DNA of 43,476 bases from Chara braunii (lineage: Eukaryota; Plantae; Charophyceae). Under the pieces are notes generated by a model. It searched no databases, was not told the origin of the DNA, and saw nothing but the letters and a program-made list of their open reading frames with translations. Below, piece by piece: positions 15,788-41,145 of this stretch. The stretch lies in assembly GCA_003427395.1 (NCBI GenBank), contig BFEA01000032.1, forward strand, positions 586,328-629,803. Reading direction: 5' to 3'. Numbering within the stretch: position 1 is the first letter of the stretch; each line of letters starts with the position of its first letter. A program made the position numbers and the translations under genes.

Positions 15788-18320
15788 CCTGTCGGACGCA
15801 ACGGCCCCCCTTCGCATCGTAGCGCATAAAGGGGGACCTCCCGACCGCATCACTCAGGAGTTTGATATCTTTATTTTTAGAGTCGGAATGCTTTCCCCAA
15901 AATTCATCGAGGTGAACAACGGGGTTTTGCCGCTCTAGCCGGGTGCATCAGTCGTACTTCTCGCATTTACCTACGACAGGTCAGGGTCCCGCGAGACACA
16001 ACTCGTCTTCTCTGAGGAGTTGTAACCATCCTCAGATGCGTATCCCTACCGAACTGCTGATCTACATACGAAAGTTTTTACATGCAATCGCAGAGGTAAA
16101 CTAGCCAGGGGCGTTTTGCTCGTTTCGCCATAGTACAGGCAATTCTTATAGGTGAATATAGAGCCGCTTTCCGGAAGATAGTATCATCGCAGCAGCAAAC
16201 ACACATGTGGGTTACATGAGACATTCAGACGTTACAATTAAACACGTGAACGTAAACAACTACGACACAAACAGATGTTGCTAACAACCATGCGAGAGTG
16301 GTAACCAGGTTACACGTAGATGTCGCATTAAAACACATGAGCGTTACAACCAAGCATTTTTGAAGTCGTTACCAAAAACACATACATGACGGCCAAAGCA
16401 CATAGAGGATGCAAACGAAGACATACAAATGCATCCTGCATATACCGAATCATCCCAAAGGCGGAAATATGACGACAGAGAACACGCCTTTGTTTTCACT
16501 ATCTCATAAAGTTGAAAGGAAAGTTTCCAAGAGCGTTCCACAATTGATGTATGTGAAAACTGACAAGAGGATCGCCTCCTCGATACCGTCGACAGTCACA
16601 ACTTGCAGAGACAAGAACTTACTGAATCAAATTTGCAAAGACAACTCCACATCGTAGCGATATGCCCAAGGCACTGTCTATTATTTTTCCTGTGACTCCC
16701 TGTTATCCAACCCACTCGCATCCCTCCTAGTACAGGGGCTATCGCCTAACTGCGAGCGACCACCAATCTTAAATATATACAGAAGAAAATAACAATTTTT
16801 ATGTGCCGCGTTCACCCTTCATCATGACACCAGCGAATTCATCGAGAGAAAAATGATAATCATAGGGGTAGGCTGGCCATGTTTTCTTGGTCGGCACAAC
16901 TGAGTCTTATCATGTTTTAGCCCTCTCGAGGGCGAAGCCCGATGATCCGATCGTAGGAGTCTAACTCGCTACCCTCCGCTGGACGGTCCACTCTAGGGGA
17001 ACCTATAGAGGGTGGACGACTCCTAGTGGCCGTAAATCGTGTGAGTCGCCCGAGCGCGTCTGTCTAGCCGGGTATGTCGCCGGATGAACGCCTCGTTAAT
17101 CGCCATCCTCCGCACTCATCCTTGCCATCATAGTCGTAGGTCGCCCGTGCTGTAGAGTTCCACCATTCGTCGCGCCAATGTCAACAGGACGGACCAGAAA
17201 GGTTCACCGAGGCGCTTAAGGTGTCGGGCGGAAGTGTCTCGAAGCCAAAGGAACACCAGTCGCGCTCCGGATTGTCTGAAGAGTACTCCAGCGGTGACTC
17301 GAGAGACAAGCTCCATGTTCGAGACACGATGGAAATACAATGTATGCCCCTGCAACTCGTTCGGACGTCAAATCACGTTCGGTCGAATCTCCGGTCGCTC
17401 TTCCGGAAGAAACCCACGTCCGTCGTTGACGACTCCGACAAAGTCGAGCCATCGAGTCGGAGTCGCATCGAACACCATTGACATCCTCTCCGCCTAGGCG
17501 TTGCGGTCTGCATCGTTCGTATCTCGAACCAAGAGATACCAGGGGATCGTCAGGTCGTGCTGAGCTCCAATGATCCCGCATCACAAGGACCCATCATCAG
17601 ATATGAAAGAGTTTTAGCAAATTCTCCTCCTGCCGCTGGAGAGCCTCATCGTCACATCTCTCCGCGACACGGAATCCGACCTCATACGGTCCCACGCGAT
17701 CGTAATGCTCGATGTATATGAATGACCCCTGCCGAGCGTGGTGGTTCCTCATAATGCGCAGGGACAACCACATGATCTCGTCCTCGAACTTGCGGTGGAT
17801 AGACTTGTTCACGACGTCGTAGACGACCCCGACGTCGAATCAATGCGTCTCCCTAAGGGGGCAGACGCCAACGCTTAGCACCAACTTCATGGCCGTTGTC
17901 ACAAATGCATAAATCCGTGGCGGGTCCTCAAGGGTCCCTTGGTCCGTCCCTGAGCTCCACCTCGGTCGGAAAGACGTCCGCGGGATGGAAGACCATGCGG
18001 CCGACTCTCGCCCATCCTTGCCTAAATCCTCCCACGGCTACAGCAGACGCCCTTGCCTCCATCTTGCTTGGAAACAGCATGGTGGTGGCGACTGTCGCGA
18101 CCCTTCGTCGGGAACTGCTCCAGGCGGCACCGCTTGCGGCGCCTGTGTTGTCTGCTACCCGCGCCCCCATTTCTCCGGCTGGCCGCCTCACTCCCTTTGC
18201 CAATATTCGGTACGATAGGCGATGCAGGCCACGACGAACCAACTTCCGTCGTCCTCTTAGAAAAGGAATCGGCGACACAAAAACCTTGTAGTGAAGTGAA
18301 GTATACGAGAAGCTGGGCTA

Positions 18321-20572: not shown

Positions 20573-23157
20573 GATGGCCCTAGGCCTTCGATTTTTGTGA
20601 GATCGACGGTGTGACGTCGTCGCACCGCAGTCGCACGCTTAGTGCAACTGACTTTGACTATTCCCCTTTCTCTCGTTTTTATCTATTCAGGGTTAGTTCA
20701 ATTAGTCATCTCGTACGTCTCACGAGATGGCTGACACTGTCTCATTTCTGAATCTGACCATTATTCCAGGAGTTATGAATTCCTAAAGTTTGACGTACCT
20801 GGCTATTCTTCCCAGTGTCGGTACGTCAGGGAAAGGCTGGACTTAGTTCCCTATGCGTCCTAAGCCCTTCTTTCCCTTTGATGGGTTCCCCGCCACGAGA
20901 TCCTTTGATCTCAATGGTGGGAAGCCCCTTATGATGCCTCCTTTCCTACTCCCATGTGCTGCTGTCCTTTTCTCGGCATTCAACCCTACCCCAGGATCAG
21001 AAAGATCCAACCTGGGGGTGTTGAGTTTGCAGGGTGGTCATAATGGCTCAGCTGAGGCCAAAGGAGGGGCCATAATGGCTGTTACTTCTTCCACCGCAGC
21101 CACGGCCTTTTCGTGATGCTAAATCAGGTGCCCAAGGTCGAACTCGGGTGTAGCATGGGGGTGGGCACCCGTTTTTCCTTCAGGCGCAAGGCTACCTAAT
21201 GTGTAAAAAGGGAGTGAATCTTCTGCTAGAACATAGGGAGATACCCTCCCACTGATATGGGCGGCTGTAGAGAAACGTTACTAACAAAAAAAAGAAAGAA
21301 AACAACAAAAAAACAATAAAATAAAATAAAGAAACAAAACAACAGAAATCCGTTAGAAACGGATCCAGTTTGTCGCCTTGCGGTCCCCCCCCCCACGCCA
21401 TCTGGCATCTCATAGTTTGTCTGTTTCTTTTGTTTTTCTTTCTGTCCTTTTTAATTTTATTTTATTTCGTCCGTTTTTCTTTTTAACGCGTTTTCTCATT
21501 TTTCTTTCCCCGTAGCCCACGGTTCGATTCCTGATTACGTAGGCGCGCCGGGAGAAAATTTGAATCGTTTTTATTTTCTCGTTTCCTTTTTCGTCCCCCC
21601 CCGTTTCCCTCTAATCGCGCCTCTCCATTCTCGCTGCCCACAGTTCGAGTCTCGCTGCGTCAGAGGAGGGTTTTAGAAGTTGTTTTGTTTTTGGCGGCGG
21701 ACTCCGTTTCGTGCGATTTCCCAGGCGGCGTGGCGGATGCCGCCCTGTGCCTTAATCGAGTCGGGCGCCTTCGGCCTTCCTATTGCCCGCTAAAACATGG
21801 CGTGCGTGGGCTCGATCCGAGTATCTGGTGGTTATCGGACCACCCGCAGACCCATTGGACTAACTCTTTTCCTGGTGTAAGGAGGAGCATCGTAGGTACT
21901 TGAGTTGGCAGGCGTGGTGTCTTATCGGTACTTCCGAGGTGACTTCCCTTCATATTCAGTGGCCCTGCTCGAAAAGGGAGCTAGCCGGCGGGCGGATTTC
22001 CGGCCGCGCGATTTTCCCAGATCGCGTGGTTCTCGGAGAGGTGTTCTTCTGCTTCACGAAAAGGAGCTAGTCCGCCGGTTGGTGGTGCGAGGGCTCGATC
22101 CCTGTGTCTGGTACTCAATAGTCCGCCACCTAAACCGACTGGGCTAGCCCTTACTTATGTATAGGTAGGGCACCACTTCTATGTGAGTGGCGGCGCCAGG
22201 CGCATTTCCGCTTTTCGAAAATGGAGCCAGCCTGGTTGGAGTCGTGCGGGCTTGATCCCTGCATCTGGTATTTAGTAGCCCGCCACCCAAACCGACTGGG
22301 CTGGCCTTTACCACTGTAGCGGAACCCTTAGTTTTCCCCGTTATCACGCCGCCTTCAGACCATTGTTCAGCGCGACCGTCTTCAACTGTCGAGCTCTGAA
22401 TCGCGTGACCGAGCTCTTTAGGTTATCGCGCATTGTCCTAGCGGTAGGAACGTCGGGGAATGATTGGTCCCGACGTGCCTATCTTTGCGGCTCCTTCTCA
22501 TATCACTTGAACACCCATTCTGCCTTAGTTAAATAGCATGGCGCGCACACAGACGACGTAGGAGCGGGGTTGAGTCCTATAGGGGTTGCGGTAGGGTAGG
22601 TTCTTTTCCGATAGTCTTTTCGGATAGGCCTTTAATTCGAGTGCCTCCTTCTTAGACTTCCCCCCTTTCTCCTTTGTCGCAGTCGTGCTTCAGGTATTTC
22701 TTACGTTGGTCCTTTCTTCCGATGGACCCTGAATTGCGCGGCCGATGGGCCACGCCGTGACCTTTTGTTCAGGTCGTAGTGCGTCGTCCTGATGGAGGGG
22801 GCGAGGGGGAATGGTAGCCCCCCGTCGTCGCGGCTTCCTTCCTTTAGTAGTTTCCGCCGCGGTATGCCTTGGTAGCGTCAACTGCCCTTCCTATAGCCAC
22901 TTGGGTGCCCAACCCTAGAGTCTAAATAACAGATTTGGAAGAGACAGACGCGGGGTCAATACCCGACAAGAAAAGAAATGTAAATATGTATAGGGGGTAG
23001 GGATACCCATGAAATCTTTTGCCGCGCCGCGGCAGATTATCTTTACTTTGTCTTTTACTTGCTTACCAACACCCTGTCATCTTACGGATAGAACGGCGCC
23101 TTCCGGCGAGCCGTCAAAACGCCGGCGGATACCCTTGTAAGGGTTTCTGCCCCGACA

Positions 23158-23872
23158 CCGTAATTTCTTCTCCTCGCTAGCGGTCAACGCAAGATTGGCG
23201 ATCTCCAGGTACGAGATGCCCCTAACCCCTTGCGCACACCTCCTAATCAAGTCCCTGTCCACCTCACCAGCTTGCCCGGAGAACATAGGCTTGATGAATT
23301 CTCCAATGCACGCCCACCACTCGAAGTCTGTGTCCTCTCTCAATTCCCAACACTGGGTGAATAGTTCGTGCCCCCCTTCTTCACCTAATGGAAATTTCTC
23401 TATCACCTGTCCCCTAAATCGGACCCTCCTTACGGTCGCGTCGTCAGCATAGAGCAGTCGGTAGGCCCAGGTCAGGATCTCCCAAGTCCTCCCGTGATCC
23501 GCCCTTAGAACTTCTGACCTTCCTCGGTATTCTACCCTATCGATCAGGCTCTCCCCGGCAGTGCCTCCTCTCAATCTCCTCAACCGGTCCAGGGCCCTTC
23601 TGGCGATGCCTAGGGGGTCCTTTCCTTCTGCCAATTCAGTCGCAAAGATTAGTCGGTCGTCGGGGTACAAAAAAATTAGCCTTTCTAGTGCAGTTGCCAC
23701 CCTCGCATGCCACTAAGAACCTGACCACCGGCTCTTGCCCGTAGATTTCAAAGAACTCGGTAGACACAACTCCTTCCCCTCTAACCTTAGGGAGGGTTAA
23801 TCCATACCTCTCTCCCGTTTTCCAACCCCTTTCCAAGATACCAAAAGGGTCCCCCCTGTCGTATCTAATCAT
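23158..23872 (-). pseudogene. Accessory family Y member, frameshifted near 23700 and truncated by element 1
   Basis: LIFLYPDDRLIFATELAEGKDPLGIARRALDRL aligns with QIFLSKEGYIEIACSLLAEKDPLWDSRAMRDRL of 24536..25288. Confidence 0.65.
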
Positions 23873-23879
23873 AGGGGTC

Positions 23880-24356
23880 TCACCTCACGCCGGACAGCCT
23901 TGTGGCGGCCTCTACCAGCGACTCCTCGCACTTAGTGCGACCGGTCTCTCTGTCCTCTCGCAGAGTTTGGCGCAAAGCCTTTTCGTACTCCCCCGTCCTA
24001 TCCCAAAATCGGGTCTCCACAAGGTGCGTCCTAGATGTCAGCGGGGTTCCTAGATACCTAGAGTCTTCTTCGAACCTTCTCTCTACTTCCAGCAAAGGTT
24101 CCCTCCAATTCCTAGAGGACCTCACTCCACCCGCGTCTCTAATGTGGATCGAAAAGCTAGCTTGCGTGGTCCAGCTCCTCCTTTTCCACAACGTCAGCCG
24201 CCGGACCTCCACTATAAATTCCTTGTCGGCACGGATCACCTGATCCTCTCCCAACTCGGGGATAAGCTCCGCACTTCCCTCGACCCTAACTTCTCTACCG
24301 TCCTCGTAGGTCTCCAACTCCCAACGAATTCTATTGGAGACGAACGAAGCTCTCAT
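23880..24356 (-). CDS. Unknown accessory ORF, 158 aa, possibly a partial family Y member
   Basis: ATG 4 nt after the upstream stop; VIRADKEFIVEVRRLTLWK resembles VIREGAYAWVRARRLTWK. Confidence 0.55.
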   Translation of the reverse strand: MRASFVSNRIRWELETYEDGREVRVEGSAELIPELGEDQVIRADKEFIVEVRRLTLWKRRSWTTQASFSIHIRDAGGVRSSRNWREPLLEVERRFEEDSRYLGTPLTSRTHLVETRFWDRTGEYEKALRQTLREDRETGRTKCEESLVEAATRLSGVR

Positions 24357-24360
24357 CCCC

Positions 24361-24549
24361 TCACCGCGCGAGAAGATCTATCGTTACTTCATCGAGGATA
24401 GTGATTGCCGCTGTCTCAAGTAGCTTGATCCTAGCTAAGGACACAGGCCTAGCCCTCCTTTCTTCCTCCCAGCATAGCGCGAGGATCCGGTGAACTTCTT
24501 CTTTTACCCTTTCTAACCCCTCTAGTCCGTCCAGGTCAAGCCCGCTCAT
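24361..24549 (-). CDS. Small helical accessory ORF, 62 aa
   Basis: ATG overlaps the end of the upstream ORF by 14 nt and the ORF exactly fills the gap between neighbours. Confidence 0.5.
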   Translation of the reverse strand: MSGLDLDGLEGLERVKEEVHRILALCWEEERRARPVSLARIKLLETAAITILDEVTIDLLAR

Positions 24550-25288
24550 CCTCTAGCTTCCGTCGGTGACAGGCAATCACGACTCGAATGAGGGTCGAGG
24601 GGTCTATCCCCTCTAATTCCCCTTCGCAGAGCTTCCCTAAGTAGCTCCACGATATCTTAGACTCCCTGGCGTGCCGGCCCCACCCTTCAAAGGCGTACGT
24701 CGGGTCCTCTAGAGTCGACCAATCGTCTCTATAAGGATCCCGAAAACACCATGTTAGCAAGGTGTGTAGGTCCGACCCTGTGAACCGAAACTGGCCTAGA
24801 ATCGACACCCTCCTTCCTATTGCCCTTATGACGTCTTCGGAGGGGTAGATTCGTTTGAGGATGAAACAAGGAACCCCCACTGGCTCACTGGAGGTGAATA
24901 GTGAGATCGCCTCCCACCCTTCGTAGGTCACTCGGTACTCTACTAGCCCTTCTTCGAGAGGCCTTACGTCCCTTACGAGTTCCTCTAGACGGTCCCTCAT
25001 GGCTCGTGAGTCCCAGAGAGGGTCTTTCTCCGCTAGCAGGCTGCATGCTATCTCTATATACCCTTCCTTTGAGAGGAATATTTGGGCCTCGCTGATCACT
25101 ATTCCTCCCTCACTACTTACCGAGAATCGTATGAACGCCTTCCCACGTCGGATCCCTCCTTCTTCCTTTAAGAGGATTATTGCCTGCCCTTCCAACCTGG
25201 CTCTTGATAGGGTAACTTGGACCACTTCCTCGGTGCCTCCTACGGGTGCTATCGAGGCCCAGAGAGATCCTGGGACCCTCCTTATCAT
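24536..25288 (-). CDS. Accessory family Y protein, 250 aa, unknown function
   Basis: Intact ORF; ATGA start/stop overlap with the upstream gene; GGIRRG..QIFL..VPCFIL motifs shared with paralogs. Confidence 0.7.
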   Translation of the reverse strand: MIRRVPGSLWASIAPVGGTEEVVQVTLSRARLEGQAIILLKEEGGIRRGKAFIRFSVSSEGGIVISEAQIFLSKEGYIEIACSLLAEKDPLWDSRAMRDRLEELVRDVRPLEEGLVEYRVTYEGWEAISLFTSSEPVGVPCFILKRIYPSEDVIRAIGRRVSILGQFRFTGSDLHTLLTWCFRDPYRDDWSTLEDPTYAFEGWGRHARESKISWSYLGKLCEGELEGIDPSTLIRVVIACHRRKLEDERA

Positions 25289-26013
25289 CGACCCTCAAAG
25301 CCTCTTCGGTTGGCTACTTGCTCTTCCCCGAATAGGCGGGCGTACAGGACGTCAGCCACGTGTGCCCAAATTCCTTCAAATTCCCTAAGCCTTTCGAATA
25401 TAGCTCATAACTCCTCTCTCGGGGGAACCCCTGCGTCCACGCACTACGTGTAGAGCCAGTACAAACCCCTAGCGCGCACCCTGGACTCCCGAGCCGCTCT
25501 AAGTACTTCTACTACTCGCTCCTTCGGGTCTCTAAAAAATGAGTCCGTCAAGAATTTGGGAAAGTTCGCGTGACGGACTCCTGACGCGCGAGGGACCTCA
25601 CCGGGCTCGGCGAAGGACACTAGTGTCCACGACTCGAAAGTCCCTTCCTCGTAGTTAGCTAACACTAAGTTGTTTGCCACAAGCCTCGCGGCTTCTCTGT
25701 ATTCAAAATGCATTAGGAGCCCGGTTACCAACCCCCTCCAAACTTCGGTCCACACCTCTTCGTTGAGGAAGATTGTAGCCCGGATCTCTAGGAAACGACC
25801 AAGGTCGGGTGGGCCTCCTCTTTCCACACCTTCCTTCCAAGTGAGTCTTCGAGCTCGAACCCACGCGTAGGCCCCTTCTCTGATCACTCCCCCTTTCTCA
25901 ATGCTCATCCAGTAAGGGGTCACTCGAGGGTCCCCCGGGGTCAAGACTTTCCCTGTGTCACTAGCCTGTATCGACTCTACCGCTCCGTTCTCATTGAGCA
26001 CGAATCTCACCAT
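25285..26013 (-). pseudogene. Accessory family Y member, 242 codons with two premature stops
   Basis: Reading through stops gives LYWLYT*CVDAGVPPREEL*AIFERL, matching LWTLYMHCIDRGIPPRRKLWGIFNRL of 25991..26677. Confidence 0.75.
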
Positions 26014-26677
26014 CTACCGATGTTGTTTTGAAAACCCACCGGTGGTATCTCTCTGGTGAGAGAGCGAAGGGTTTCTCTAAAGACTCCAATCTATTAAAAA
26101 TGCCCCAAAGCTTCCTGCGTGGAGGGATACCCCGATCGATGCAGTGCATATACAGCGTCCACAGGGCCCCGAAGGGTAACCCCAGACTCCTTCCCCTTTC
26201 CAGAAACCTCACTATCTTTCCTTCGTCAGTCCCTTGGAACAGGAAAGACGACACCTTCACAGTTAACGGATAGCACGCCCTCGGAAGCTCTTCCTTTCCT
26301 GCCAACCTCTCCTTCTCTATAGCCGTAAACGCAAATCGCTCTCGAACCCTACTTATCCATCCCTCTCTTATTTCCCTCGCTTCTCGTAACAACCTATCCA
26401 ACCCACCCCCTTGTCCCAGGACCAGGGGCACTATGACCTTCGCCCAAGCCTCGGGGGCTACGAAGATAACCGAGGTTACCTTGAGACACCTCTCACCCTC
26501 TCGGTCCTCAACTTTTTTTGACTCTATCCACACGAACTCTCCGCTCACGGTGGCCTGACCTCCGTCTATCCTTTCCCAATTGGGAATCTCCCTATTGCTC
26601 GGGATCAATCTAAGGGTGTTACTGGCTTCCAAGGAGGACTCGACAAAGCGTCCCTGTTTCCTATCGTGGAACACCAT
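25991..26677 (-). CDS. Accessory family Y protein, 228 aa
   Basis: Intact ORF; GEFVWIES...VIFV...IVPLVLG matches GEQTFIWIES...VILYI...IINLVLG in element 3. Confidence 0.75.
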   Translation of the reverse strand: MVFHDRKQGRFVESSLEASNTLRLIPSNREIPNWERIDGGQATVSGEFVWIESKKVEDREGERCLKVTSVIFVAPEAWAKVIVPLVLGQGGGLDRLLREAREIREGWISRVRERFAFTAIEKERLAGKEELPRACYPLTVKVSSFLFQGTDEGKIVRFLERGRSLGLPFGALWTLYMHCIDRGIPPRRKLWGIFNRLESLEKPFALSPERYHRWVFKTTSVDGEIRAQ

Positions 26678-26681
26678 TCAT

Positions 26682-27005
26682 TTAAAACATTCTCTGAGGC
26701 ACTCCGAAGACCCTTTGGCAGCCGTAATCTCGCCCGCCCTCGCGGTCCCGAACCGATTCCCTAAAAATCCCCGCGCGAATCCTACAGGCTTTGATCCCGT
26801 ATGGTACAGGGTTATCCACGCAGTAGGTGTTGTACCAATGAAGCGACCTAACGGAGAGTTGCCACCCCCTCTCTCGCACTATGGACCGCACAACCCTCTC
26901 GTACCGCTCCTCCTCCCCGTTCACCCTTCGGAAAACGAACGACGGGAATATGGCCCTGATGCACTCTGTGGCGCGAGGGTACGCCTCGTCTCGAGTGCAG
27001 GTCAC
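26682..27005 (-). CDS. Unknown accessory ORF, ~107 aa, start uncertain
   Basis: Stop lies 4 nt before the next ATG; same strand and composition as the cassette; GTG start. Confidence 0.4.
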   Translation of the reverse strand: MTCTRDEAYPRATECIRAIFPSFVFRRVNGEEERYERVVRSIVRERGWQLSVRSLHWYNTYCVDNPVPYGIKACRIRAGIFRESVRDREGGRDYGCQRVFGVPQRMF

Positions 27006-27417
27006 CCTTACCTCAATTGGTGGGCAGTCTCTAAGGGGCTCCGCCTAAAAAATCTGTCTCAATATCGGACCCGCTCGTGCCTCCCAATGATCCGCACGTT
27101 ACCAACCTAGGACTAAGTGAGTGACGTAATCGACCCTGGCCTCCTTACTCAAATAGACAGTTCCCTCCGCACGGACCACCGTTCATCTGGGTCTCTTCCC
27201 GTTCTAGGGCCTGTTCCGGGACCACCTGTCCCCTTCCCAAGTTCCTACAGTGAAACGAGCCCAAAGGAAAACCCCTTGTTCTAACTCTTACCCCCTCTCA
27301 CGGCCGGCTAGATACCTCTCGGTTCAGTGGTCCAAAGGGACGCTAAAGCACTCCCTGTCTTTGCTTAAATCAACTTTCTCTATTCGAACCCCTTCTTCTC
27401 CAGTACCTTCTACGATC

Positions 27418-27783
27418 CTAACCATCCCCTTGGACTATCTCCTCTATGGTTTGAACTAGTGCTCTCCACCCGTCCGATCCGTCTAGGAAGGCTTCCGGAA
27501 TAGAAGGAACAGGCCTACTTCCTCGTGAATACGTCCTACACCCCAACGAGTAGAAGTAGTTAATCTCGTAAGCCCCCAACAGTTGCCTCTCGAGCTGTGC
27601 GTGACCGACCGCTTCCTCCCAGCTATCCAAATATCCTACCTCTCTATCAACACCCTCTTCTGTGTACAAGGCTACGTCGAAATGGCCGGTCCACCAGTAG
27701 AAAGTATAGCACCACACGTCTACCCCACCTCGATCACCCACACTAATTCTCGCAGGTTCAAACTCCTGAGCCCTCAAACTCAT
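27418..27783 (-). CDS. Accessory family X protein, 121 aa
   Basis: Clear paralog of 27800..28138 (GGVDVWCY.F..WTG.FDV, YFYSLG..TY.RG.RP). Confidence 0.75.
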   Translation of the reverse strand: MSLRAQEFEPARISVGDRGGVDVWCYTFYWWTGHFDVALYTEEGVDREVGYLDSWEEAVGHAQLERQLLGAYEINYFYSLGCRTYSRGSRPVPSIPEAFLDGSDGWRALVQTIEEIVQGDG

Positions 27784-27799
27784 GGATTTGCCGTTCTCA

Positions 27800-28138
27800 C
27801 TACCCTCTCCACGATCCCACTAGCACTTTCCAGTCGTCCGATCTGTCGAGATAAGCGTCAGGAATTATTGGCGCCGGACGACCACCTCTGGGGTAGGTTT
27901 GGTATCCTAAAGAGTAAAAATACTTATACTCGTAACCCCTCAATTCCTTCCTCGAACCGCGAGAGTAGCCTATCGCCTCTTTCCACCCAGGAAGCAAATC
28001 CTCCTCTTGATCTAGTCCTTCCTCTACATAGACACCCACATCAAAGTCACCCGTCCATAGTCGAAAAGAGTAACACCACACGTCAACACCTCCGTACGTA
28101 CACACGCTAATCCATTCCGGAACGGCTTCTAAGCTCAT
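27800..28138 (-). CDS. Accessory family X protein, 112 aa
   Basis: Tandem paralog of 27418..27783; both are open and begin MSL. Confidence 0.75.
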   Translation of the reverse strand: MSLEAVPEWISVCTYGGVDVWCYSFRLWTGDFDVGVYVEEGLDQEEDLLPGWKEAIGYSRGSRKELRGYEYKYFYSLGYQTYPRGGRPAPIIPDAYLDRSDDWKVLVGSWRG

Positions 28139-28744
28139 GCAATATAATCAAAAGAAAATTCCTTAAGTCCCTACTTCCTTTTGGCCACTCGAGAGACCAC
28201 CTCTAACCCGCAAGGAGAAGAAGCCTGTGAGCTCAGAAGGATCAAATGGACCAGAGAAGGAACGCCATCTCACTCGGCTACCTTCCTGTCCTTCCCCGCT
28301 GAGAGACCCCTTCCCACCTCCGGTATAGAGACTAGCCGCGGACACAGGTTATCCCCAAGGAAAGGTGGCAACCCCGTCTCCGGAGTCGAACCGAAGTCAC
28401 ACACCTGGGTCCTATGTCCCCCACTGAACCGATCCCTAGTCCTAAGTTAGCCTATCCGGTACCACGCCTCTACTCAGCCCACCTCAAGCGTGGAATTACC
28501 CGGGTCCCAGGACAAGATCCACCTATTTATCAGAAGTCACTAGCCTATCTACTCCCCCCCATTCTCCTCATCGTGAACTCTTCGCACTTCGTTCCCTTCT
28601 TCTTTTTCCGCCTCCTGCTGCCTCTTTCCTCTCTTGGAATCACTGGAATTCAAATCGGGAAGTCAGAAAAAGTGGGGTGGGAAAAGCGAAGCTTTTAGGA
28701 AGAGTCCCTCAGGTTGAGTTGACAAGCATACGTACCTTGAGTCT

Positions 28745-29302
28745 TCAATATTCGTTATCATAATCCCAATAGTCCCCCAGGTCCGAGTCCGAGAAATCGG
28801 CTAGACACCGGTCCACCCGGGATTCGGCCTCCGATCCCTCGTCCAAGGGCCCCCAAGTATCCCCTTCTTCTCTAACCCCCTCGCTAGCAACTGTAGGTGT
28901 GTCTCTCTCTCCCCCTTGCCCCGACACTCGTAGCACCACTCTCCTCACCCCCAAGTCCCCAACCGGTCCCGTTTGAGAGCCCCGCCCTCTTGCGGGAGTC
29001 GGCCCTCGCAAGGAATCCGACATCAGCCCTCGCGGGTCGAGAACCGAAGCCCCAAACCCTTCTCTAGACACCCTCTCTCGTGCAGGACTTTGCCCTCGGG
29101 TAGGTACTCTCCATAACCCGTGCGGATCAAGTATACTCGGCGACCCCCTTGGGTCCCAAATGGATAGCTCCCCCGGACCCTCTCGGACCCTTCTCTCCTC
29201 TCTTCCCCTCGCCCCCTCTCTTTCTTCCCCTTGAGCAGACCCCCTTACACTATTTTCCCGGACGGTTCTTCTTCCCATCCCTTCGTTGTTTTTCACCCTC
29301 AT
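28745..29302 (-). CDS. G/R/E-rich low-complexity ORF with acidic-aromatic tail
   Basis: 185-aa ORF, first in the cassette; repeated S(I/V)(W/L)DP.G motifs; ends DYWDYDNEY. Confidence 0.4.
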   Translation of the reverse strand: MRVKNNEGMGRRTVRENSVRGSAQGEEREGARGREERRVREGPGELSIWDPRGSPSILDPHGLWRVPTRGQSPARERVSREGFGASVLDPRGLMSDSLRGPTPARGRGSQTGPVGDLGVRRVVLRVSGQGGERDTPTVASEGVREEGDTWGPLDEGSEAESRVDRCLADFSDSDLGDYWDYDNEY

Positions 29303-29764
29303 CCAGTCCCCTCAAGCAAACTGTTCACCCTCTTAATTTTAAAATTTTTAGAAATAAACAATCGCAAAAATCAAACACTAAAAAAAGGGAACTAACATGT
29401 TTTACCCTTCGGAGGCCAGGAGCGGGAGCCGAGGCCACAAGCGGGCCGGAGTGGACCTGCAAAAAGCCAAGGAGAAGCCCGATACCCCAAGTCCCCCGCA
29501 CCCAAAAAACAGCCCCGACAACCCTCCCAAAAGAAAAACAAGCCCCAAGGAGTTCCCCCTCCGCTGCTGCCCGAGTGAAATTGGCACTAAGAACCCCCGA
29601 GCGGCCCGAAGAAAAACTCAGTCGTGCCGAAGAGAACGTCGTAGAAGATGCTGATGTCCTGAAAAAAAATTGGTGCCGAAGAAAACCCCTGCCACTACCT
29701 GTCACGCCGGTCCTGCCCTTACCCTGTAGTTGCTGAGTCGGCCGCGGTCGTGGGAGAAACGCCC

Positions 29765-29783
29765 ATCCCCGGCAACGGCGCCA
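29765..29783 (-). promoter_or_regulatory. Primer binding site, tRNA-Asp
   Basis: TGGCGCCGTTGCCGGGGAT, 3 nt after CGACA. Confidence 0.9.
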
Positions 29784-30144
29784 CTTTGTCGCGTCCACAC
29801 CTCCCTCGAGACCCTCACCCGCCCCGGTCGGTCCCGCGGCCCGGTTTCCGAGTGTTACCCTGTCCCGTCGACGCACACCCCCGACCCGGTACCTGTGACC
29901 GTAGGCCCGCGACTCCGACCCCTGTTTCCGGACGGACGGCCAAGGCCCCCTTGTCTCCCCCCCGTTACACCCCCTCTTTTTCCCGCTATGTTCTTTGCGC
30001 AGTTAAGTAGGTCGTCGTGCATTCCCCGCCGGCCCCTTTCCAACTGGTCGGGCGACTAAGCAGGTACGACAGAGCCCAACAGAGTCGGAAACAACAGGTG
30101 CCACAGAGCCCAACAGGGATGGTAACAACAGGATTCAAAGAATA

Positions 30145-30785
30145 GAGGTTCAGGCTCGATATGGACAACAAATTCAAAGAGGACCGAGAGCACGACCTTC
30201 GAACTTGGATTCCCTAACACCACCGAATCTGATCCGGAAAGCCTCCGAACTTGCTTCCACACAGACGCTCTCTGCGCGAACTGTTTATGCAACCCTCTAG
30301 ATCTTCAGAGGTAAAAAAAAAGGAAAGAAGAGAGGTTCAGACTCGACACGGACAGCAAATTCAAAAAGGAACGAGAGCACGACCTTCGAACTTGGATTCC
30401 CTCGTATCACCGATTCTGATCCGGAAAGACTCCGAACTTGCTTCCACACAGGCGCTCTCTGCGCAAACCGTTTATGCAACTCTCTAGATTTTTAGAGGTA
30501 AAAAAAAAAAAAAAAGCAAAGAAGAGAGGTTCAAAATCGACATGGACAACAAATTCAAAGAGGAACGAGAGCGCGACCTTCGAACTTGGATTCCCTCGCA
30601 TCACCGATTCTGATCCGGAAAGACTCCGAACTTGCTTCCACACAGGCCCTCTCTGCGCAAACCGTTTATTCAACTCTGTAGATCTTCAAAGGTAAAAAAC
30701 AAAAAAAAGAAGAGAGGTTCAAACTCGACATGGACAGCAAATTCAAAGAGGAACGAGAGCGCGACCATCGAACTTGGACTCCCTC
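30145..30785. repeat. ~190-bp tandem repeat, about 3.4 copies
   Basis: AGAGGTTCA...TCGACATGGACA.CAAATTCAAAGAGG units near 30145, 30331, 30525 and 30713. Confidence 0.9.
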
Positions 30786-31825
30786 ACATTACTGGCACGG
30801 AAACTGGGGGGAGGAACGAGAGCGCTGACAGCCCGCTCGCAAGAAACCCGGTTCCCAAAGGGGAAGTCTTCCAACCCCGCGGCACACTCGGGGGCCCTCT
30901 AGGCGGCAGCACAAGGTGTGGCGGGCGCAGGACGAAAGACTCATGTTGGACGGAGACGCCGAGCTCAGAAGGGACTGTCAACAAGAGCCTCGAACGTGGT
31001 CTTCGTATGTCGTGTAGATGCGGAGCTTAAAGGACTTCGAACTCCCCTAGGCCAGCTTTTGAAGATTCTTCCGCGACTGACAGTGCCCCCGCCGCATGAG
31101 CGCGTGGCGTTCTCCGAAGTTCAAAAGCAGTTCAAGCTCGAAGCGGTCGCGAACTCGAGAGGGGACCACGAACCCGGGCTCGACGCGTATGTAGGCTCGC
31201 TTTGGAGCCGGGAGTCAGCGCTAGCCTTCGATGGCTGGGCGTCGACAACTTTCCTTCACTCGCGTTCGCCGACCGGTAACCCTTAGGAAACGGTCTTGAA
31301 GTTGGCCGCCTGCGCGCTCGCGATGATTGGCGGATTCTCACTCTCTCTCTCTTTCCTTTCTTGCCGCTCTCTCCTTCTCTCTCTCTTCCTCCTCTCTTGT
31401 TTCCTCCTCTCTCTCTTCTTTCTCTCACTTTCTCTCTCTCTCTCTCTTTCTCTCCTCTTTTCCTCTCCGTCAGCTCCCGCCAGCCGTCGTGCCTAAGCAC
31501 ACTGTTCCCCACTTCCCACCCGAGTCTTGACTCCCCCGTACCCGATCGACCCGTCTTCTCCCATTGCGCACAGGCTCTCCCCTCGTTCTTTGGGCGCGTT
31601 CAAGCGCCGCGAGCGCTCTCCCCCTGTTTGCTCCCTCTTAGGTAGCTCGACGGAGTTCTAAGCTACAGCTAACGTGAGAAACACCCACCATGTACGCGAA
31701 CACCGAAGGTTTCCCTCCTTCCTTCCCAAAGCCCGCTCGCGACGAGCGCTCCCTCGACACCGTGCGTTCAAACACCGCCTTTCCTTCTTTCTGACGATCT
31801 CTACCCCGCTAGGTAAGGTAGCCCT

Positions 31826-32224: not shown

Positions 32225-33877
32225 TCCCCTTCGCGCGTGCTCACTGTCCCCTCCCGTTCTCGCGGTGCCGAGCGCAATGCTCCGGAGCCCGCCCGGCGTG
32301 CTGAGTGCAAGCCCGTGCACGTGCCTCGTGCTTCGTCCCTCCTCCCTTCTCCTCTCTCTCTCTCTCTCTCTCGTCGTCTGGCTCGCTGCCGCTCACTACC
32401 CGCGCTTCCATGTGAGCAAGCTCCATGCGCTGTGACCAACGAGCGCTCCTCCTCCTCTCCCTCTCTCCCTGTCTCGATCGCGCATCGTGTGAGTTGACGG
32501 GCCCTGTCCGCTGTAGGTACGCTCCCCGCATTCTTGAGCCTGCCCCCCCTTTATACCCCACCGATCTCGTTTGGTGCTCGTACTTCTTTCTGTGGCCCGG
32601 GGCGTATGGTTCTTAAGGCGGCAAAGGTTGAAATTTTCAATCCATTTTTGAACTTTCGTTCTTCATTTCATACTTCCTCCCACTCCCGCTTTCCCTCTCC
32701 CATCATCCATTCTTGCATGCCTGCTCCAATAGAATCCAATCTACCTCCGATGGTCGGATCGTTCTTAAGCAAGGACCCTCTTCGCTGCGCCTCCGCTGAC
32801 GGAAACCCCCGCTCGTACGTGCGCGCGTAACCTTGCTTGCATGTTTGAACAGTCAAATCTCTCTTTCGCAGCGGGATCCTGATTATTCTTGAAAATCAAG
32901 ATTGCTCCCCGGTCCCCCCCTTTTAAGGCGTATCAGCATCCAACCCTCCTTGTCTGCATTGGTACAAATGTTTCTCCTAATGTTCGGTGAGGGGTCAGCC
33001 ACAGAAACAGTTACCAAGAAAGTCAAGAACTCTCGCTTATTCGTAACTGTTTCGAAGGTGGCCCACGATCTGGCCAGATTACCATCAAGAGCCAGTCTGT
33101 GGCCTCACCATGGCGGAACCACGGACGGTTAAGGCTACAGACTTGGCTAGTCTCTCCGCCTTCCATCATGCTATTCTCCCTTCCCTGGTATTGTCCTGGT
33201 CGTACTCCTTCTTAGTGTCCTTGCTCCTTTTCGATCGCCCATCCCGTTTTTTATGTCCCTTGATCGCTTTCCGCAAGAGCTCAGGCGTTCTTGAATATCC
33301 ATAGGGCTTGACAGTCCGGACAAGCTACCCGCACCTTGTTTTTTGCCAAGTCGCTGCTTCTCCTCGTCGAAACCCCACCGTTGCGGTCCTTGCGCGATCT
33401 ATCGGCCTGGCTACTCCCGCGCCGATCGTTTCGACTCCCTTTACTCAGCACCGAGGTAGGCCCTATGTTGATCGAGCCGACTCGCATCTTGTAACATCAA
33501 CCCCAGATCTCCGGTAGGGTTTACAGTCGCCGGTATTCGCTGGTCCTACCGCTTCCCTCGGTGAGTCTTCTTCGTCAAGGTTTTCTTCCTCGAATCGTCG
33601 GTGACTACCCCCAACACGCATTCTCTTCGCGCGCCTTTGAAAACTCTGACTTTGGGTCCGCTCTCAGCCCTGCTTACGATCCGGCGTCCGCTGCCTGTTT
33701 CCCTGCTTGTTAAACGTTAGCAAAAAAAAAAAAAAAAAAAAACTCTAAAAAAAAACCCTTCAAGGCTCGTCTATTCATGCATCAACCACGCAAAACCAAT
33801 AAAACAACCCAAAAAACAAATCACGATTTTCCCAAAGAGTGCACTCGGCTGGTAGCGCTAACATTTGGAATGAATAT

Positions 33878-34055
33878 GGATGACCCTAACCAGGTTGTCC
33901 GATGGAAATGGATAAGGATGACCCTAACCAGGCTGTCCGATGGAAATGGATAAGGATGACCCTAACCAGGCTGTCCGACGAAAATGGATAAGGATAGCCC
34001 TAACCAGGCTGTCCGATTGAAATGGATAAGAATGACCCTAACCAGGTTGTTCGGA
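33878..34055. repeat. 38-bp tandem repeat, about 4.6 copies
   Basis: GGATGACCCTAACCAGGCTGTCCGATGGAAATGGATAA at 33878, 33916, 33954, 33992 and 34030. Confidence 0.95.
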
Positions 34056-34139
34056 ATGGCCCCTGACAAGGGTCATTCTTTGGAATTGGCACTGGGGTCC
34101 CCTTGCATAGTTGTGTGAGATGGATGAGATTGAGAAGAG

Positions 34140-34390
34140 ATGAGCATTGGAAAATATAATGGACTCAGCTTTGGAAAAAATATCTGACTCAGCTTTGAAA
34201 AAAATATTGGACTCAGCCTTGGAAAAGATATTGGACTCAGCATTGAAAGAGATATTGGATTGAGCCTTGGAAAAGATATTGGATTGAGCTTTGGAATTGG
34301 ATTGAGCATTGGAAGTGGACTGAGCTTTGGGATTGAGATTGAGCCTTGGAATTGGATAGGGCATCGGAATTGAACGAGCATTGGAAATTG
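34140..34390. repeat. 24/18-bp minisatellite
   Basis: Units like AGCCTTGGAAAAGATATTGGACTC. Confidence 0.85.
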
Positions 34391-35344
34391 CATTGCACAA
34401 ATAGGGGACCCTAGGCAACTTGAAATGGACATGGAAATAGCATTGAAATGGATTTCTCTTTTCTTCTAGTCCTTGACCTCAGCAAAGGAGGGTACCAGTG
34501 CTTGCACCGCAACCTCAAGACCTCTACCCCTTTCGGGGGGAAAGTCTCAGCGTGACCTATTCCTCTTGAAAGGGGATGAGGGTTAAAGGACCAAGGCACC
34601 TACCACTTGGATCGGTGCGGGACGTCCGGGACTGACCCCGACAATGAGCTCTAGTCGGGGAGTTCAAATTGCGCCTCGTATTGAGAGCCTAAACGTCAAA
34701 GGGTGAGAGGACCAAATGGGCGAGAGAGTCATTCTTATTCTAGTCTATTTCGTTACTCTCCAACCACACGCCATACCATAGAGGGGTGGCATGGCCGTTT
34801 GGGTCGGACCTCGGCTGCCCGCACTAAGTTGGGCGGCACTGTCCAAGGGGAGGGGCTGGGCGAGGTACCGTGTGGAGGCCACCACCACCACGGAGCACTG
34901 ACACTGCCCTGCCGGAACATTACAACCGTTTCGGGAGTAATTGCGAGGTCTTCGTAACTGCACTCGCGGACTAATAGAGAGTCTCAACTCTCTTGAAAGG
35001 AAGAGGCCGGATCCAGAAAACTACCACTCTGGAGGAACGATTCGCGTGGAAAGCTCTTACGGATAGACGAGGCCCTGGAAGGTTTGGAGTGGATCAGCCT
35101 GCTAGATGTGAGGAGGAACCTCAGTGTTGGTGCTCGCCACGTAATAGTAAAAGGTCGGATCGAGTAGGAGGATGAGGCGCCACCCGCTGGGGAGGAACTG
35201 ATCACTCTTCTCTTGTGAAGCGGATGGGCTTGTGTCCTTGACTGCGGTCGGCGGGTCAAAGGTCTGCGTACCTCCGAGTGAGAACCAGTCGCGCGATGGA
35301 GACATCGCGTTTTGAGGGGGGGGAAGGTGTGTCATCTAACAATA

Positions 35345-35590
35345 AAAACGCATGGAAAAGACTTGTGAAATTGGCTTTGCGTGGGCATGAGAAAACGGGT
35401 CTGGCACGATGCCAGAATAGAAAAGATTTGTGTAATTGGTTTTGCGTGAGCCTGAGAAAAGGGGTCTGGTAAGATGCCCAGAACATAAAAGATTTGTGTA
35501 GTTGGTTTGCGTGGGCCTGAGGAAAAGGGGACTTGCAAGATGCCCAGAAGAGAAAAGACTTGTGTGATTGATTTGGCATGAGCTTGAAAA
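35345..35590. repeat. ~59-bp degenerate tandem repeat
   Basis: AAAGA(C/T)TTGTG...TTGG.TTTGCGTGGGC.TGAG units, about 4 copies. Confidence 0.75.
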
Positions 35591-35882
35591 AGCGTCGGGC
35601 GAGACGTCCGAAAAGGAAAAGACTTGAGAAAATGGCAGGTTGGGCAACGAATGAGTAATTGGCTTGCATGGGCTTGAAAAGAAGGTCTGACAAGGTATCT
35701 AGAAAAGAGATGCATAAGGATGAAATGAGCATTGCACATAGAAAGCAAATTAAGCGAGGGGCAGGAAAGGAAAAAGGGTGATATGCATGCGAAATTGGCA
35801 GGACCTGAGAAAGTCCGGGTAAAATGACCCGGGGGAAATGTATGTGGATTTGGCAAGCATGAACTTCGGGGAAGGGTGACGG

Positions 35883-37499: not shown

Positions 37500-38583
37500 G
37501 ATCGTGGTTGGTTCTGCCCTGTTAGTTGGAGTTGTCCCGTGTTTTGGTCTCCTCCCAAATTCTGATTCTGGGGTAACATGAGATATGGACCTTGCGTAGG
37601 TCATGGCCCTATCGGGAAGTACCCAGGCCATGCCCCCATAGGCGGACCCACGGGCCACTGTCCATACCGAGCCGTGCTTGTTGACGGCTCTTGCCCATAC
37701 TGGACTATCGGTTGTTGAGTCACCTGCCCTTTTCCCGAACCTTGTCCTCCGATATCGATATTTTTAGCCTTCCTATGACACTTGGTCAGTTTGACCGTTC
37801 CTTCTGGTTCTCCTTCTTCGGCCTCCTCTCAATCTTCTTCTTCCTTCTTCTCTTTCCTGACGGCTATGTCACTGTCAGTACCTTTTCAGGTGTCACTCTT
37901 TCCCTAAGCTCCTTTATCTCGTTTGCCATATCGCTGAACACTCCTCCAAGTACACTATCCGTCCCTTGGATTGTCCCAACAGCATTTCTTTTCGTTCGTT
38001 CGACCTTGATTTGGTGATGAAATACCTGGTTCATATCTCCCGCCGCGATGTTCCTTTTGATGGTTTCCCACTTCCTCCCGGCGGCTCCCCCTCGGGTTAG
38101 CTCCATCGCCTCATACCCAGATAATTTTCCTAGGAATATGACGCACTGCATCTCTTCAGACAGCCCCTGGACCCTCTCGGTTGTCTTTTCGAATGTGTTG
38201 GCGAACGCCCTGATCGTGGTGAAATCATCTCTGTTCATGTTATAGAGATGATCAATCGTGAGCAAACCATCTCCTAGTTTAAACGTCTTTTGCATGCCCC
38301 TTTTAAACTCAGCCCAATCATTGTTGGACTTTCTCACTACCTCTTCTACGTCAGATGTGCATTCACACCATACGTACTCGAACAACTGGGCAAACTTCTC
38401 GGCCGGTGTTAACTGGTTGAAGATTTGTTCGAGTAGCTTTAACCAATGAGTCACCCTATCCCCTTTGAAAGGGAAGATGTCTATTCTCGGTAGGTTAGAC
38501 CTTTTTATCGTTCTCTTCTCTCGTAACTTGACGATTTCCGCCGAGGTGATTGGCGACCCTCCATTGGCGCTGGCATCGCCCAT
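37500..38583 (-). pseudogene. gag: Gag of element 3, open for 239 aa then disrupted
   Basis: LPRIDIFPFKGDRVTHWL, WAEFKRGMQKTFKLGDGLL, QCVIFL; homologous to element 1 Gag. Confidence 0.85.
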
Positions 38584-38856: not shown

Positions 38857-39516
38857 TCAATAGGTCGAAAGATCCTCTAGACTGTAGATACGTAGGTACG
38901 TGTTTACCACGCACAACATGCTATAAAAATATTTTTCCTTTAGTCTTGGTCTCATTTCCAAGTATAGACGGTAAACAACTTCCGACGCCTCGAACTCGAA
39001 ACCCATCTCTGGAACCGATTGAGCTACGAGTACCGCTCGTTCCACATTCTCTATTCCCCAAAATGCTTCGTTGATTATGAAATTCGGAAGCGTGGTCTTA
39101 ACGTACTTCGTCGGATATGTGAATTCGGCTGCCCACTTAGCATCGATTGATTTTATAACCTCCCCTTCTTCTCCCCAGTACATCTTCCTTGAAAATGCGT
39201 CAAGGGTCATTCCGGCTAACAACACGTACTTAGAGACGGGGCGGTTTTTCCCTATCGCAAGATCGATCGCGTGAGCCCTCCAGAGAAGGGCCTGTAGATA
39301 AAGGGTCACTTTTACCATTGTCTGCCTTTCCCTTGTGGTCCACCCAGTTTCTATCCAAAGGAAGGTTTCCTGTCCTATCGGTATCCCACACTGTGAGTCC
39401 ATTTCTTCATCTAGATTTATTGTTCTCTTCGGCAGTGTCATTTCAACCCCTCCTTCCTTTGGCTCGGGCAGGTTGATCAGAAAGCTCCGATCAGCGAACC
39501 ACATTAAAGAAGTCAT
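38857..39516 (-). CDS. Accessory family Y protein, 219 aa
   Basis: Intact ORF; GIPIGQETFLWIETGW, TLPNFII and VYRLYLE are shared with the adjacent paralog. Confidence 0.75.
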   Translation of the reverse strand: MTSLMWFADRSFLINLPEPKEGGVEMTLPKRTINLDEEMDSQCGIPIGQETFLWIETGWTTRERQTMVKVTLYLQALLWRAHAIDLAIGKNRPVSKYVLLAGMTLDAFSRKMYWGEEGEVIKSIDAKWAAEFTYPTKYVKTTLPNFIINEAFWGIENVERAVLVAQSVPEMGFEFEASEVVYRLYLEMRPRLKEKYFYSMLCVVNTYLRIYSLEDLSTY

Positions 39517-39598
39517 CCTGATATCCTATTATAACAGTCAAAGAAAGAACCTTTCCCTTCTTAGTAACCATTCAATTTCTCATTTCTTAATAAATTTT

Positions 39599-40265
39599 CT
39601 ATCTCAGTCCATCATGAGCACCCCTTCCTATTGGATCGAGGATCCCCTGCTTTAGTTCCTCCCAGTAGACATGCCTATTTGCCCAATCGTATTGACGTGC
39701 ATATGAGTCGACCCGCGATAGTATGTTTTGCGAATCCCTTCCTTCAATCAAATGCTCTATCTCTAGGTATATGTAGTATACCAGCAGAGAGGTAGATGTG
39801 TAATATTCTCTCTCAGGTATCGCCATTGCGGCTTCCGCAGCCATTTCCACTCGGGTTCTCCCTCCGAAGGCTGCATCTACGATGAACATAGGAAGGGTTC
39901 CTCTTAGATATGCTGCTGGTGGAAGAAATTCGCTTGCCTTTCTTACCCTCACAGATCCTATGACCCTCTCAAATCCATTCAAACTAACATCTCTTCTTCT
40001 AGATTCGATGAATACCTAATACTAAATTTATTATGATAGATTGCAAATTCTCTGATGCGATATACAGAATAACCCTCTCTACCGCACAGTTCTCGCCTCT
40101 AACCCATCCAGACTCAATCCAGATGAAAGTTTGTTCCCCCACAGAAATCCCCCAACAATACCCTGTCTCTCCATTCTCTTCGTAGCGACTGGGTAGATTC
40201 ATCATAAGGCCACGCTTCATTTGCACGACCTCTCTGACCGTGATTTGGTATAGGACGAAAGACAT
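39599..40265 (-). pseudogene. Accessory family Y member, one frameshift near 40010
   Basis: ORFs 39999..40289 and 39599..39982 together align along 38857..39516 (GISVGEQTFIWIESGW; TLPMFIV; VYYIYLE). Confidence 0.75.
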
Positions 40266-41143: not shown

Positions 41144-41145
41144 CC

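Follow-up and report, generated by a model that had tools for sequence, protein, structure and literature searches.

The window analysed here is a 43,476-nt stretch of the Chara braunii contig BFEA01000032.1, which contains sequence of LTR elements 1, 2 and 3. In element 2, nine abutting minus-strand genes (28138-23158) and one doubtful ORF (o1) are located 3' of the PBS. The features needed below are as follows.

29787..29790, minus strand: inner (3') edge of the element 2 5' LTR, which ends in CA; the LTR extends toward higher coordinates
29765..29783, minus strand: PBS of element 2, of the same type as those of elements 1 and 3
29303..29764, minus strand: leader, with one short uORF and a U-rich tract close to its 3' end
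28745..29302, minus strand: o1, putative ORF, 185 aa, Arg/Gly-rich, low-complexity
28139..28744, minus strand: 606 nt with no intact ORF, a decayed gene or spacer
27800..28138, minus strand: A1, 112 aa, paralog of A2
27418..27783, minus strand: A2, 121 aa, paralog of A1
26682..27425, minus strand: B0, family member of ~247 codons, broken in this copy by 6 in-frame stops
25991..26677, minus strand: B1, 228 aa, intact family member
25285..26013, minus strand: B2, family member of ~242 codons, broken by 2 in-frame stops
24536..25288, minus strand: C1, 250 aa, intact, paralog of C2 with a weaker link to the B family
24361..24549, minus strand: s, 62-aa ORF between C1 and E, putatively coding by its packing only
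23880..24356, minus strand: E, 158 aa, intact singleton
23158..23872, minus strand: C2, C-type, with a frameshift near 23640-23710 and truncated by element 1 at 23158
20706..23157, minus strand: outer part of the element 1 5' LTR, 91-93% identical to 4018-6729; its edge at 23157 is the breakpoint
39599..40265, minus strand: D1 of element 3, family member split into two frames
38857..39516, minus strand: D2 of element 3, family member of 219 aa on which the fold was predicted
37864..38583, minus strand: element 3 gag (Retrotrans_gag, E 5e-4), downstream of D1-D2

The PBS of element 2, TGGCGCCGTTGCCGGGGAT (29783-29765), lies 3 nt inside the LTR edge with its CA end at 29787, and near-identical PBSs are found at positions 15774 and 41130. 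We take it to be of the tRNA-Asp type, from the 3' end of plant cytosolic tRNA-Asp. A check of the PBS pattern in viral contigs hit no tRNA (60 of 68 viral loci scanned). The leader RNA structure is not unusual (z +1.96) and contains no stable hairpin, so ribosome shunting is unsupported. At the other end, the LTR edge of element 1 at 23157/23158 cuts C2, the last gene of the array. Many contigs and reads stop at this edge with varied flanks, and a sister copy agrees with the window as far as 23158 and differs beyond. The gag and pol of element 2 are absent from the window, and element 2 is not resumed at the far flank of element 1, whose own pol has the order PR-RT-RH-INT. An earlier note had described 6 kb of same-strand ORFs between a tRNA-Asp PBS and the insertion point of element 1. 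The PBS with its LTR edge, the ORF coverage and the cut at 23158 bear this out, the PBS being taken as tRNA-Asp type; the ORFs are not "directly behind" the PBS, since the first begins 460 nt past it and is followed by the 606-nt gap.

Stop-free frames of at least 100 codons cover 76% of the minus strand of 23158-29302, a level reached by 0 of 200 dinucleotide shuffles of this segment (mean 12%, maximum 36%). The plus strand also has a coverage of 52%, and coverage by itself is therefore weaker evidence than paralogy. A1 and A2 share 55% identity, with codon-position identities of 0.69/0.74/0.34 and with pN 0.27 and pS 0.85, from protein-guided alignments that bias pN/pS low for distant pairs. 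The codon-position comparison also covered five further accessory-gene pairs or part-pairs, some outside the cassette. Four comparisons within B, C and D gave third-position identities of 0.25-0.35 versus 0.40-0.62 at positions 1-2, and gag3/gag1 gave a similar pattern. The accessory paralogs show saturated third codon positions, as in gag, and past purifying selection.

The array is built largely through tandem duplication of one ~230-aa family, which includes five array genes, three of them secure and two weaker. B0 matches the iterated family profile with a domain E of 1e-37. C1 aligns to C2 (z 9.8) and to the B0 fragment (z 4.5), and hhalign connects B and C at E 0.002; the iterated profile did not recover C1. 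Sequence comparison weakly suggests membership of C1 and C2 in the family. The ORF o1 has no paralog, no homolog was seen for it and its codon periodicity is slight, making it a doubtful coding ORF. In the DNA runs, the deepest bins of the array fall in 28139..28744. The roughly ten unknown ORFs counted earlier stand as nine genes with no Pfam match, but they boil down to about five kinds, and three of the nine are broken in this copy (B0 and B2 by in-frame stops, C2 by frameshift and truncation).

A family search returned 24 matches among 1.84 billion representatives, and 17 of the 20 matches looked up were named Chara braunii models. P0015 and P0018, both repeat proteins, were judged false and left out of the iterated profile, in which P0021 and P0026 were retained. 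B1 is 72-82% identical to P0003, P0004 and P0013, E is 82% identical to P0003 176-324, B2 matches P0012 at 79%, and C2 has homologs in P0003 (88%) and P0016 (37-56%). P0004, in which B1 stands behind a DUF659 transposase fragment, was read as a chance fusion model. P0003, the model of the sister copy (CBR_g39819), is an automatic, probably spliced gene model, not a transcript, with the order B1, E, C2 tail, gag, protease (protease E 1e-6; gag region 28-29% to Pfam-positive gags). It carries on the gene cut at 23158. Since the sister copy runs from the cut gene into gag and protease, its gene model shows the array to lie 5' of gag-protease.

Other Chara models have one to three family copies ahead of other gags, and P0023 combines the same accessory family with RT, RNase H and integrase. 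The family stands ahead of at least four gag types in Chara braunii models, these gags being only 22-33% identical to each other, and its copy number ranges from one to five. Element 3 has two family homologs between PBS and gag, with the homology of D2 extending past its stop to about 38767, and element 1 has merely 514 nt there, partly gag N-terminus, in agreement with the earlier note. P0003, P0023 and the other models likewise uphold its proposal of a Gypsy lineage in which a variable accessory module precedes gag. P0003 follows the proposed order LTR-PBS-cassette-gag-pol from cassette genes to protease, and RT-RNase H-integrase appear in P0023. With B1 and C1 as single queries, no protein of comparable length was matched, and a search of longer proteins found P0003 and P0004 only. 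None of the 10 exact sequences was present in the protein collection searched, metagenome and viral contig scans gave no matches, and the ESM Atlas gave no usable match for B1 or P0006.

No cassette ORF matched Pfam at E<=1 in a search that recognised both gag and pol in elements 1 and 3, consistent with the reported lack of gag, pol or env motifs. Searches of PHROGs, NCBIfam and PDB sequences found nothing significant; for the A pair, rows to polyhedrin and antibodies (E>=0.1) were discarded. D2 was predicted from 23 aligned rows to have a compact, confident fold (pLDDT 85). The D2 model had no match at E<=1e-3 in PDB and BFVD (best Z 5.5) and none at Z 8 or more among 48,161 chains, and its phosphatase, RavZ and gelsolin rows were dropped as background level. 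Modelled from its single sequence, C1 gave a poor fold (pLDDT 42), so its Z 6 matches to HAT1 and connectase were disregarded. Conserved family columns are mostly Pro, Gly and aromatics. The maximum 19-residue hydropathy is 0.14-1.37 in 11 of 12 proteins, and the B1 peak of 1.78 is in a segment that aligns with a strand-helix in the soluble model. The lack of clear transmembrane segments speaks against env-like or fusogen roles. The proteins are predicted to be soluble, non-enzymatic, dispensable host-interaction factors. Sequence, viral contig and BFVD searches detected no viral relative for any array gene, and the virus-like module envisaged earlier consists largely of tandem paralogs from one family, not of diverse genes.

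At all eight junctions from A1 to C2 the gaps are -23 to +16 nt, and the stop of B2 overlaps the start of C1 (ATGA). Internal Met accounts for 6 of 1542 codons in the array versus 39 of 1487 in gag-pol (Fisher p 2e-7), and Ile codons are not scarce. Out-of-frame ATG occurs 15 times versus 31+/-4 expected (0 of 500 synonymous shuffles as low), against 48 versus 50 in the control. On the sense strand ATG is the most depleted of the 64 triplets, and on the antisense strand it is undepleted. Of the surviving out-of-frame AUGs, 13/15 open at most 8 codons, versus 43% at baseline (p 0.001; p 0.72 and 0.41 in the controls). The sole internal AUG of A2 is the overlapping B0 start, E has zero internal AUG in all frames, and internal Met is lacking from the B1 parts of both P0003 and P0004. 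Most array starts have weak context as judged by the -3 base, not by Chara's own consensus (pyrimidine in 6 of 9, versus purine in 3 of 3 element 3 starts). About 40 AUGs, several in good context, are left from the PBS to 23158. When all ten segments are counted, out-of-frame TAC is depleted like ATG (z -3.9 vs -3.6), and junction bias therefore contributes. The tandem copies in element 3 and in the P0016/17/22/23 lineage have a normal Met content (2-5%), and so the mechanism is not general.

These touching ORFs, the internal Met loss, the halved out-of-frame AUGs, the mini-ORFs and the weak starts are new, and as far as translation signals go they make the term "operon-like" literal. That start codons are so scarce suggests that all genes are likely read from one RNA. 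The array is multi-copy and the element high-copy: in run X1, 5356 contigs map to the array (3928 of them <95% alike) and 30/30 bins are covered. Few poly(A) reads fall on the array: X6 has 425 of 16.7 million and X5 has 11 of 8.9 million. Most are <95% alike, and both strands are represented (depth sums 62 vs 42).

We consider it somewhat more probable than even that the locus is the 5' accessory array of a Gypsy-type LTR element, formed by duplications of one family, likely translated polycistronically and encoding soluble host-interaction proteins. An LTR-driven RNA would be translated as a polycistron by leaky scanning with some reinitiation. Scanning ribosomes would bypass weak starts across AUG-poor coding sequence or, alternatively, resume at an abutting start after a stop. 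We lean slightly toward the inference that these routes yield graded amounts of up to nine proteins. It is distinctly unlikely that each gene is instead expressed from its own subgenomic mRNA, with a common LTR leader spliced to an acceptor as in complex retroviruses. Each of the nine starts has a YAG no more than 60 nt upstream, that of B2 being pyrimidine-rich, the leader has a U-rich tract, and Ogre uses partial splicing (PMC6317226, in excerpt). However, eight of the nine upstream regions are purine-rich coding sequence with no pyrimidine tract, no joints were seen in short poly(A) reads at low depth, and splicing leaves the AUG loss deep within ORFs, the mini-ORF bias and the abutting junctions unexplained. 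Pure termination-reinitiation in place of leaky scanning, possibly through an element-encoded CaMV TAV-like protein, appears improbable. Every junction is within its range, one being the ATGA overlap, and CaMV, caliciviruses and some non-LTR elements use it (PMC5902531, in excerpt), but reinitiation would disfavour AUGs near stops and not throughout ORFs, following the argument in the excerpted part of PMC11892635, and a TAV-like match is absent from the Pfam and fold searches.

As for function, the proteins may aid the element in countering silencing or other defences of the host. We infer such a counter-defence role, as against other functions, more weakly, at somewhat below even confidence, because of repeated lineage-specific duplication, fast divergence and the lack of an invariant catalytic set, and because the family is absent from element 1, which replicated without it. 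They could instead be particle or transport components that move element RNA or particles in giant cells or through plasmodesmata, which seems unlikely. The proteins would share an RNA with gag, element 3 has the family and gag without pol, and the best structural rows are gelsolin-type actin-binding domains; yet those rows are at background level (Z 5.0-5.5, rmsd 3.7-5.1, <95 residues aligned), BFVD gave no match to viral movement or coat proteins, and element 1 does without the family. It is very improbable that the ORFs are captured or chance sequence, passively carried and now decaying. The three broken genes and the lack of independent support for o1 and s fit such decay, but synonymous divergence is saturated while frames and proteins are conserved, the fold is confident and the family is present ahead of several gag lineages. 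For A, B, C and D this explanation is largely refuted.

In plant LTR elements an extra ORF usually stands alone, has no relative in other lineages and is of unknown origin (PMC6317226, PMC7264820, in excerpt). Plant Ty3/gypsy elements that carry extra ORFs on the 5' side, Ogre among them, share with the present element a PBS for a non-Met tRNA, very long LTRs containing tandem repeats and the extra ORFs themselves (PMC6317226, PMC6431247, PMC7264820, in excerpt). Ogre has one or two, often with a plant mobile domain (PMC6317226, in excerpt), whereas here there are about nine, mostly paralogs, with polycistron-type signals. This domain, found in the 5' extra ORF of 57% of Ogre elements, is absent here at Pfam E<=1. 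The Drosophila MDG1 group likewise has accessory ORFs 5' of gag, sORF1 and sORF2, on an unspliced LTR-to-LTR RNA with translation shown (bioRxiv 10.1101/2025.03.14.642691, in excerpt); translation of the Chara array is predicted. As excerpted there, these two ORFs are of about 110 and 70 aa and sORF2 is a membrane protein, whereas the array encodes tandem 112-250 aa proteins with no clear transmembrane segments. The planarian Burro/GYPSM1 is also a gypsy element of very large size, and some of its accessory ORFs are upstream, but its accessory domains are recognisable host-like ones plus env, mostly in one polyprotein (PMC6431247, in excerpt), while the family here is private, unmatched and duplicated.

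A close analogy in expression may be ORF I-II-III of RTBV and badnaviruses, which rely on leaky scanning through AUG-poor upstream ORFs with weak starts and short overlaps (PMC5902531, in excerpt). These are also reverse-transcribing, with small ORFs before a capsid polyprotein. By this analogy, the abutting ORFs, AUG scarcity and weak starts would be a tungro/badnavirus-type leaky scanning signature, over 5 kb versus 0.9 kb. In the excerpted account, RTBV is a non-integrating virus with two upstream ORFs over 900 nt and no internal AUG, whereas the array is in an LTR element and has nine ORFs over 5 kb, with AUG strongly depleted, though not wholly lost from this decayed copy. No sequence relationship to RTBV or badnaviruses was found, nor any precedent in the literature for scanning past nine starts over 5-6 kb. 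Green-algal nuclear polycistrons similarly have weak upstream start context and few internal AUGs, but those in the excerpts of PMC11892635 are chlorophyte host genes, mostly of two ORFs, and include neither transposons nor streptophyte algae. Our literature search on Chara, accessory ORFs and gypsy leaky scanning found no description of such an array; the Chara genome paper or repeat databases could list the elements. For the proposed function, the model is VANC, the transposon-borne, fast-diverging and lineage-specific anti-silencing protein of Arabidopsis VANDAL transposons. VANDAL, however, is a DNA transposon with a single gene, and Pfam and PDB searches found no similarity of array proteins to VANC.

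One family recurs ahead of at least four gag lineages, can be folded with confidence and is assayable, and the AUG statistics provide a testable model for how one eukaryotic RNA could yield many separate proteins. At least 17 'hypothetical' models in the Chara braunii gene set contain the family and so contaminate that set. It is possible, though doubtful, that Chara harbours a clade of elements with a virus-style mRNA of about nine cistrons scanned over 5 kb and a graded, expandable arsenal of paralogs with a new fold. If true, this would be the longest known scanning-read eukaryotic polycistron and a gene-accordion counter-defence in a retrotransposon.

Three LTR elements, all on the minus strand and with one PBS type in common (15774, 29770 and 41130), lie in the window, and the gene array considered here belongs to element 2:

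From the element 2 PBS to the element 1 LTR edge (23157/23158), minus strand: element 2 array.

Long frames on the minus strand occupy 76% of the array region compared with 12% in shuffles, and none of the 200 shuffles reaches 76%. Since plus-strand frames also cover 52%, we relied on homology instead of frame coverage. The units after the PBS are o1, a 606-nt gap, and then A1, A2, B0, B1, B2, C1, s, E, and C2. The earlier note described about ten unknown ORFs behind the PBS; ten units are obtained when reading through breaks, but many are paralogs, and o1 and s lack independent support. A1 shares 55% identity with A2, the alignment of B1 to B2 spans their length (tblastn E 6e-12), both B2 and C1 are matched by B0, and C1 matches C2. 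In profile comparisons, the B pair matches the D pair (D1 and D2, the family members of element 3; E 4e-4) and more weakly the C pair (E 0.002), with no match between the C and D pairs. Synonymous sites are near-saturated and codon positions 1 and 2 conserved in all paralog pairs, as in gag. The paralogous ORFs are thus genuine genes, of which three carry breaks in the present copy.

A search with a five-row family profile against 1.84 billion representatives gave 24 matches, two of which were discarded as repeat proteins. Twenty matches were looked up, comprising 17 Chara braunii models and three short-contig proteins. The identity of cassette proteins to Chara braunii gene models, 72-88%, makes Chara the probable host. 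One model, P0003 (CBR_g39819), joins B1 (82%), E (82%), and the C2 tail (88%), runs past the residue that is cut at 23158 in the window, and continues into gag and protease. This continuity fixes the breakpoint at 23158 and, subject to P0003 being an automatic gene model, would place the array 5' of gag, in agreement with the accessory module upstream of gag proposed in the earlier note. The homologs it had noticed in element 3 are borne out by D1 and D2, which precede gag. Ahead of another gag, three family domains each are found in P0017 and P0023 and one each in P0022 and P0024; P0005, P0007, and P0010 have D-type domains ahead of further gag-like regions. The gag types behind family members are 22-33% identical to each other. 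P0020, known only from a 1.3-kb contig, is a stand-alone 252-aa member about 23% identical to D2.

A 20-row tree, limited to rows of at least 170 aa, unites B0, B2, and B1 (99/96) and separates them from the D clade (99/97); C1, B0, and B2 form long branches. The B and D grouping points to duplication of the family within lineages. Every array bin is covered by many contigs, mostly 80-95% alike, in two DNA runs that may be those behind the assembly, and therefore the array as a whole forms a diverged family with multiple copies. Between o1 and A1, the summed contig depth of 28168-28655 is three- to fourfold above the rest of the array; this segment may be shared with another family.

Element 1 carries gag, protease, RT, RNase H, and integrase, and its LTR segments are 91-93% identical. 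Its 5' LTR may be about 7.4 kb long (inner edge 15790, outer edge 23157). Only 20706-23157 has a partner (4018-6729), so the 3' LTR seems to be cut short near 4018. Located 3' of its integrase (8173-9200) are a zinc-knuckle-like peptide and a decayed second gag-like frame, whose start resembles by eye the Chara gag N-terminus; blastx of this region against the 24 proteins of the family search gave no match. Element 3 (36090-42325, 6.2 kb) reads LTR-PBS-D1-D2-gag-LTR without pol, has 93% identical LTRs, and is inserted among 47-bp tandem repeats, where its flanks show a 4-bp duplication carrying one mismatch. Element 3 could represent a non-autonomous family or just one copy with a deletion; its relative P0005 has RNase H remnants. 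A palindromic CCCTTGTAAGGG motif lies some 15 nt in from the outer LTR edge in both elements 1 and 3 (6704, 23132, 42300), and the terminal 35-nt LTR stretch containing it is all that matches in many further contigs and RNA reads. Between the two elements, the inner LTR regions (15955-16141 vs 36215-36405 and 41271-41459) are 73-75% identical despite gags of 33% identity. Tandem arrays right of the element 2 PBS (30136-30789, 33869-34395, 35355-36088; units of 194, 38, 24, 65, and 47 bp) are probably within its LTR or a nested element. A degenerate 5/10-bp CTACT satellite at 1625-2500 adjoins (CA)n repeats at 885-1225.

From A1 to C2, each start lies -23 to +16 nt from the preceding stop, with one ATGA junction. 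Internal Met amounts to 0.4% in the array vs 2.6% in gag-pol (p 2e-7), and out-of-frame ATG is at half of expectation on the sense strand only. Among the remaining out-of-frame AUGs, 13 of 15 open at most eight codons (p 0.001), with both controls differing, and six of nine array starts have a pyrimidine at -3. The rice tungro bacilliform virus (RTBV) study describes leaky scanning with the same features, and a small uORF inside ORF II that did not block ORF III (PMC5902531); algal bicistrons behave like RTBV (PMC11892635). The array is likely read by leaky scanning, in which scanning ribosomes would pass weak starts through the AUG-poor array and make several proteins from one RNA. Against this reading, AUGs are depleted but still present, out-of-frame TAC is as low as ATG, the Met content of other family lineages is normal, and poly(A) reads are few, on both strands, and from other copies. 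Expression of the genes via splicing appears unlikely, and pure reinitiation somewhat less probable still; leaky scanning remains our preferred reading.

Extra 5' ORFs are known in Ogre (PMC6317226), the MDG1 group (bioRxiv 10.1101/2025.03.14.642691), and Burro (PMC6431247). The array differs from these elements, as described there, in its gene number, paralog array, unmatched fold, and polycistronic signature. We found no description of it in literature searches on Chara, accessory ORFs, and leaky scanning in gypsy elements, whose results did not include the Chara genome paper.

The D2 structure predicted from a 23-row alignment (pLDDT 85, pTM 0.82) opens with a beta meander at the N-terminus, also has helices and another pair of strands, and closes with a helical bundle at the C-terminus. 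Foldseek with this model returned nothing at E<=0.001 from PDB and BFVD, and a wide structure search, which barely tested the C-terminal helices, reached a top Z of 5.5. Pro, Gly, and aromatic residues make up most of the conserved family columns; a single Glu is shared by 16 of 21 rows, a Cys/His set is absent, and no clear transmembrane segment was found in the proteins. We infer that the family protein is a soluble binding protein and not an enzyme or envelope. The array is accessory, because element 1 replicated without it. Host conflict produces repeated duplication with fast divergence, and for this reason we put counter-defence first as the candidate function of the array proteins, with particle transport as the second choice.
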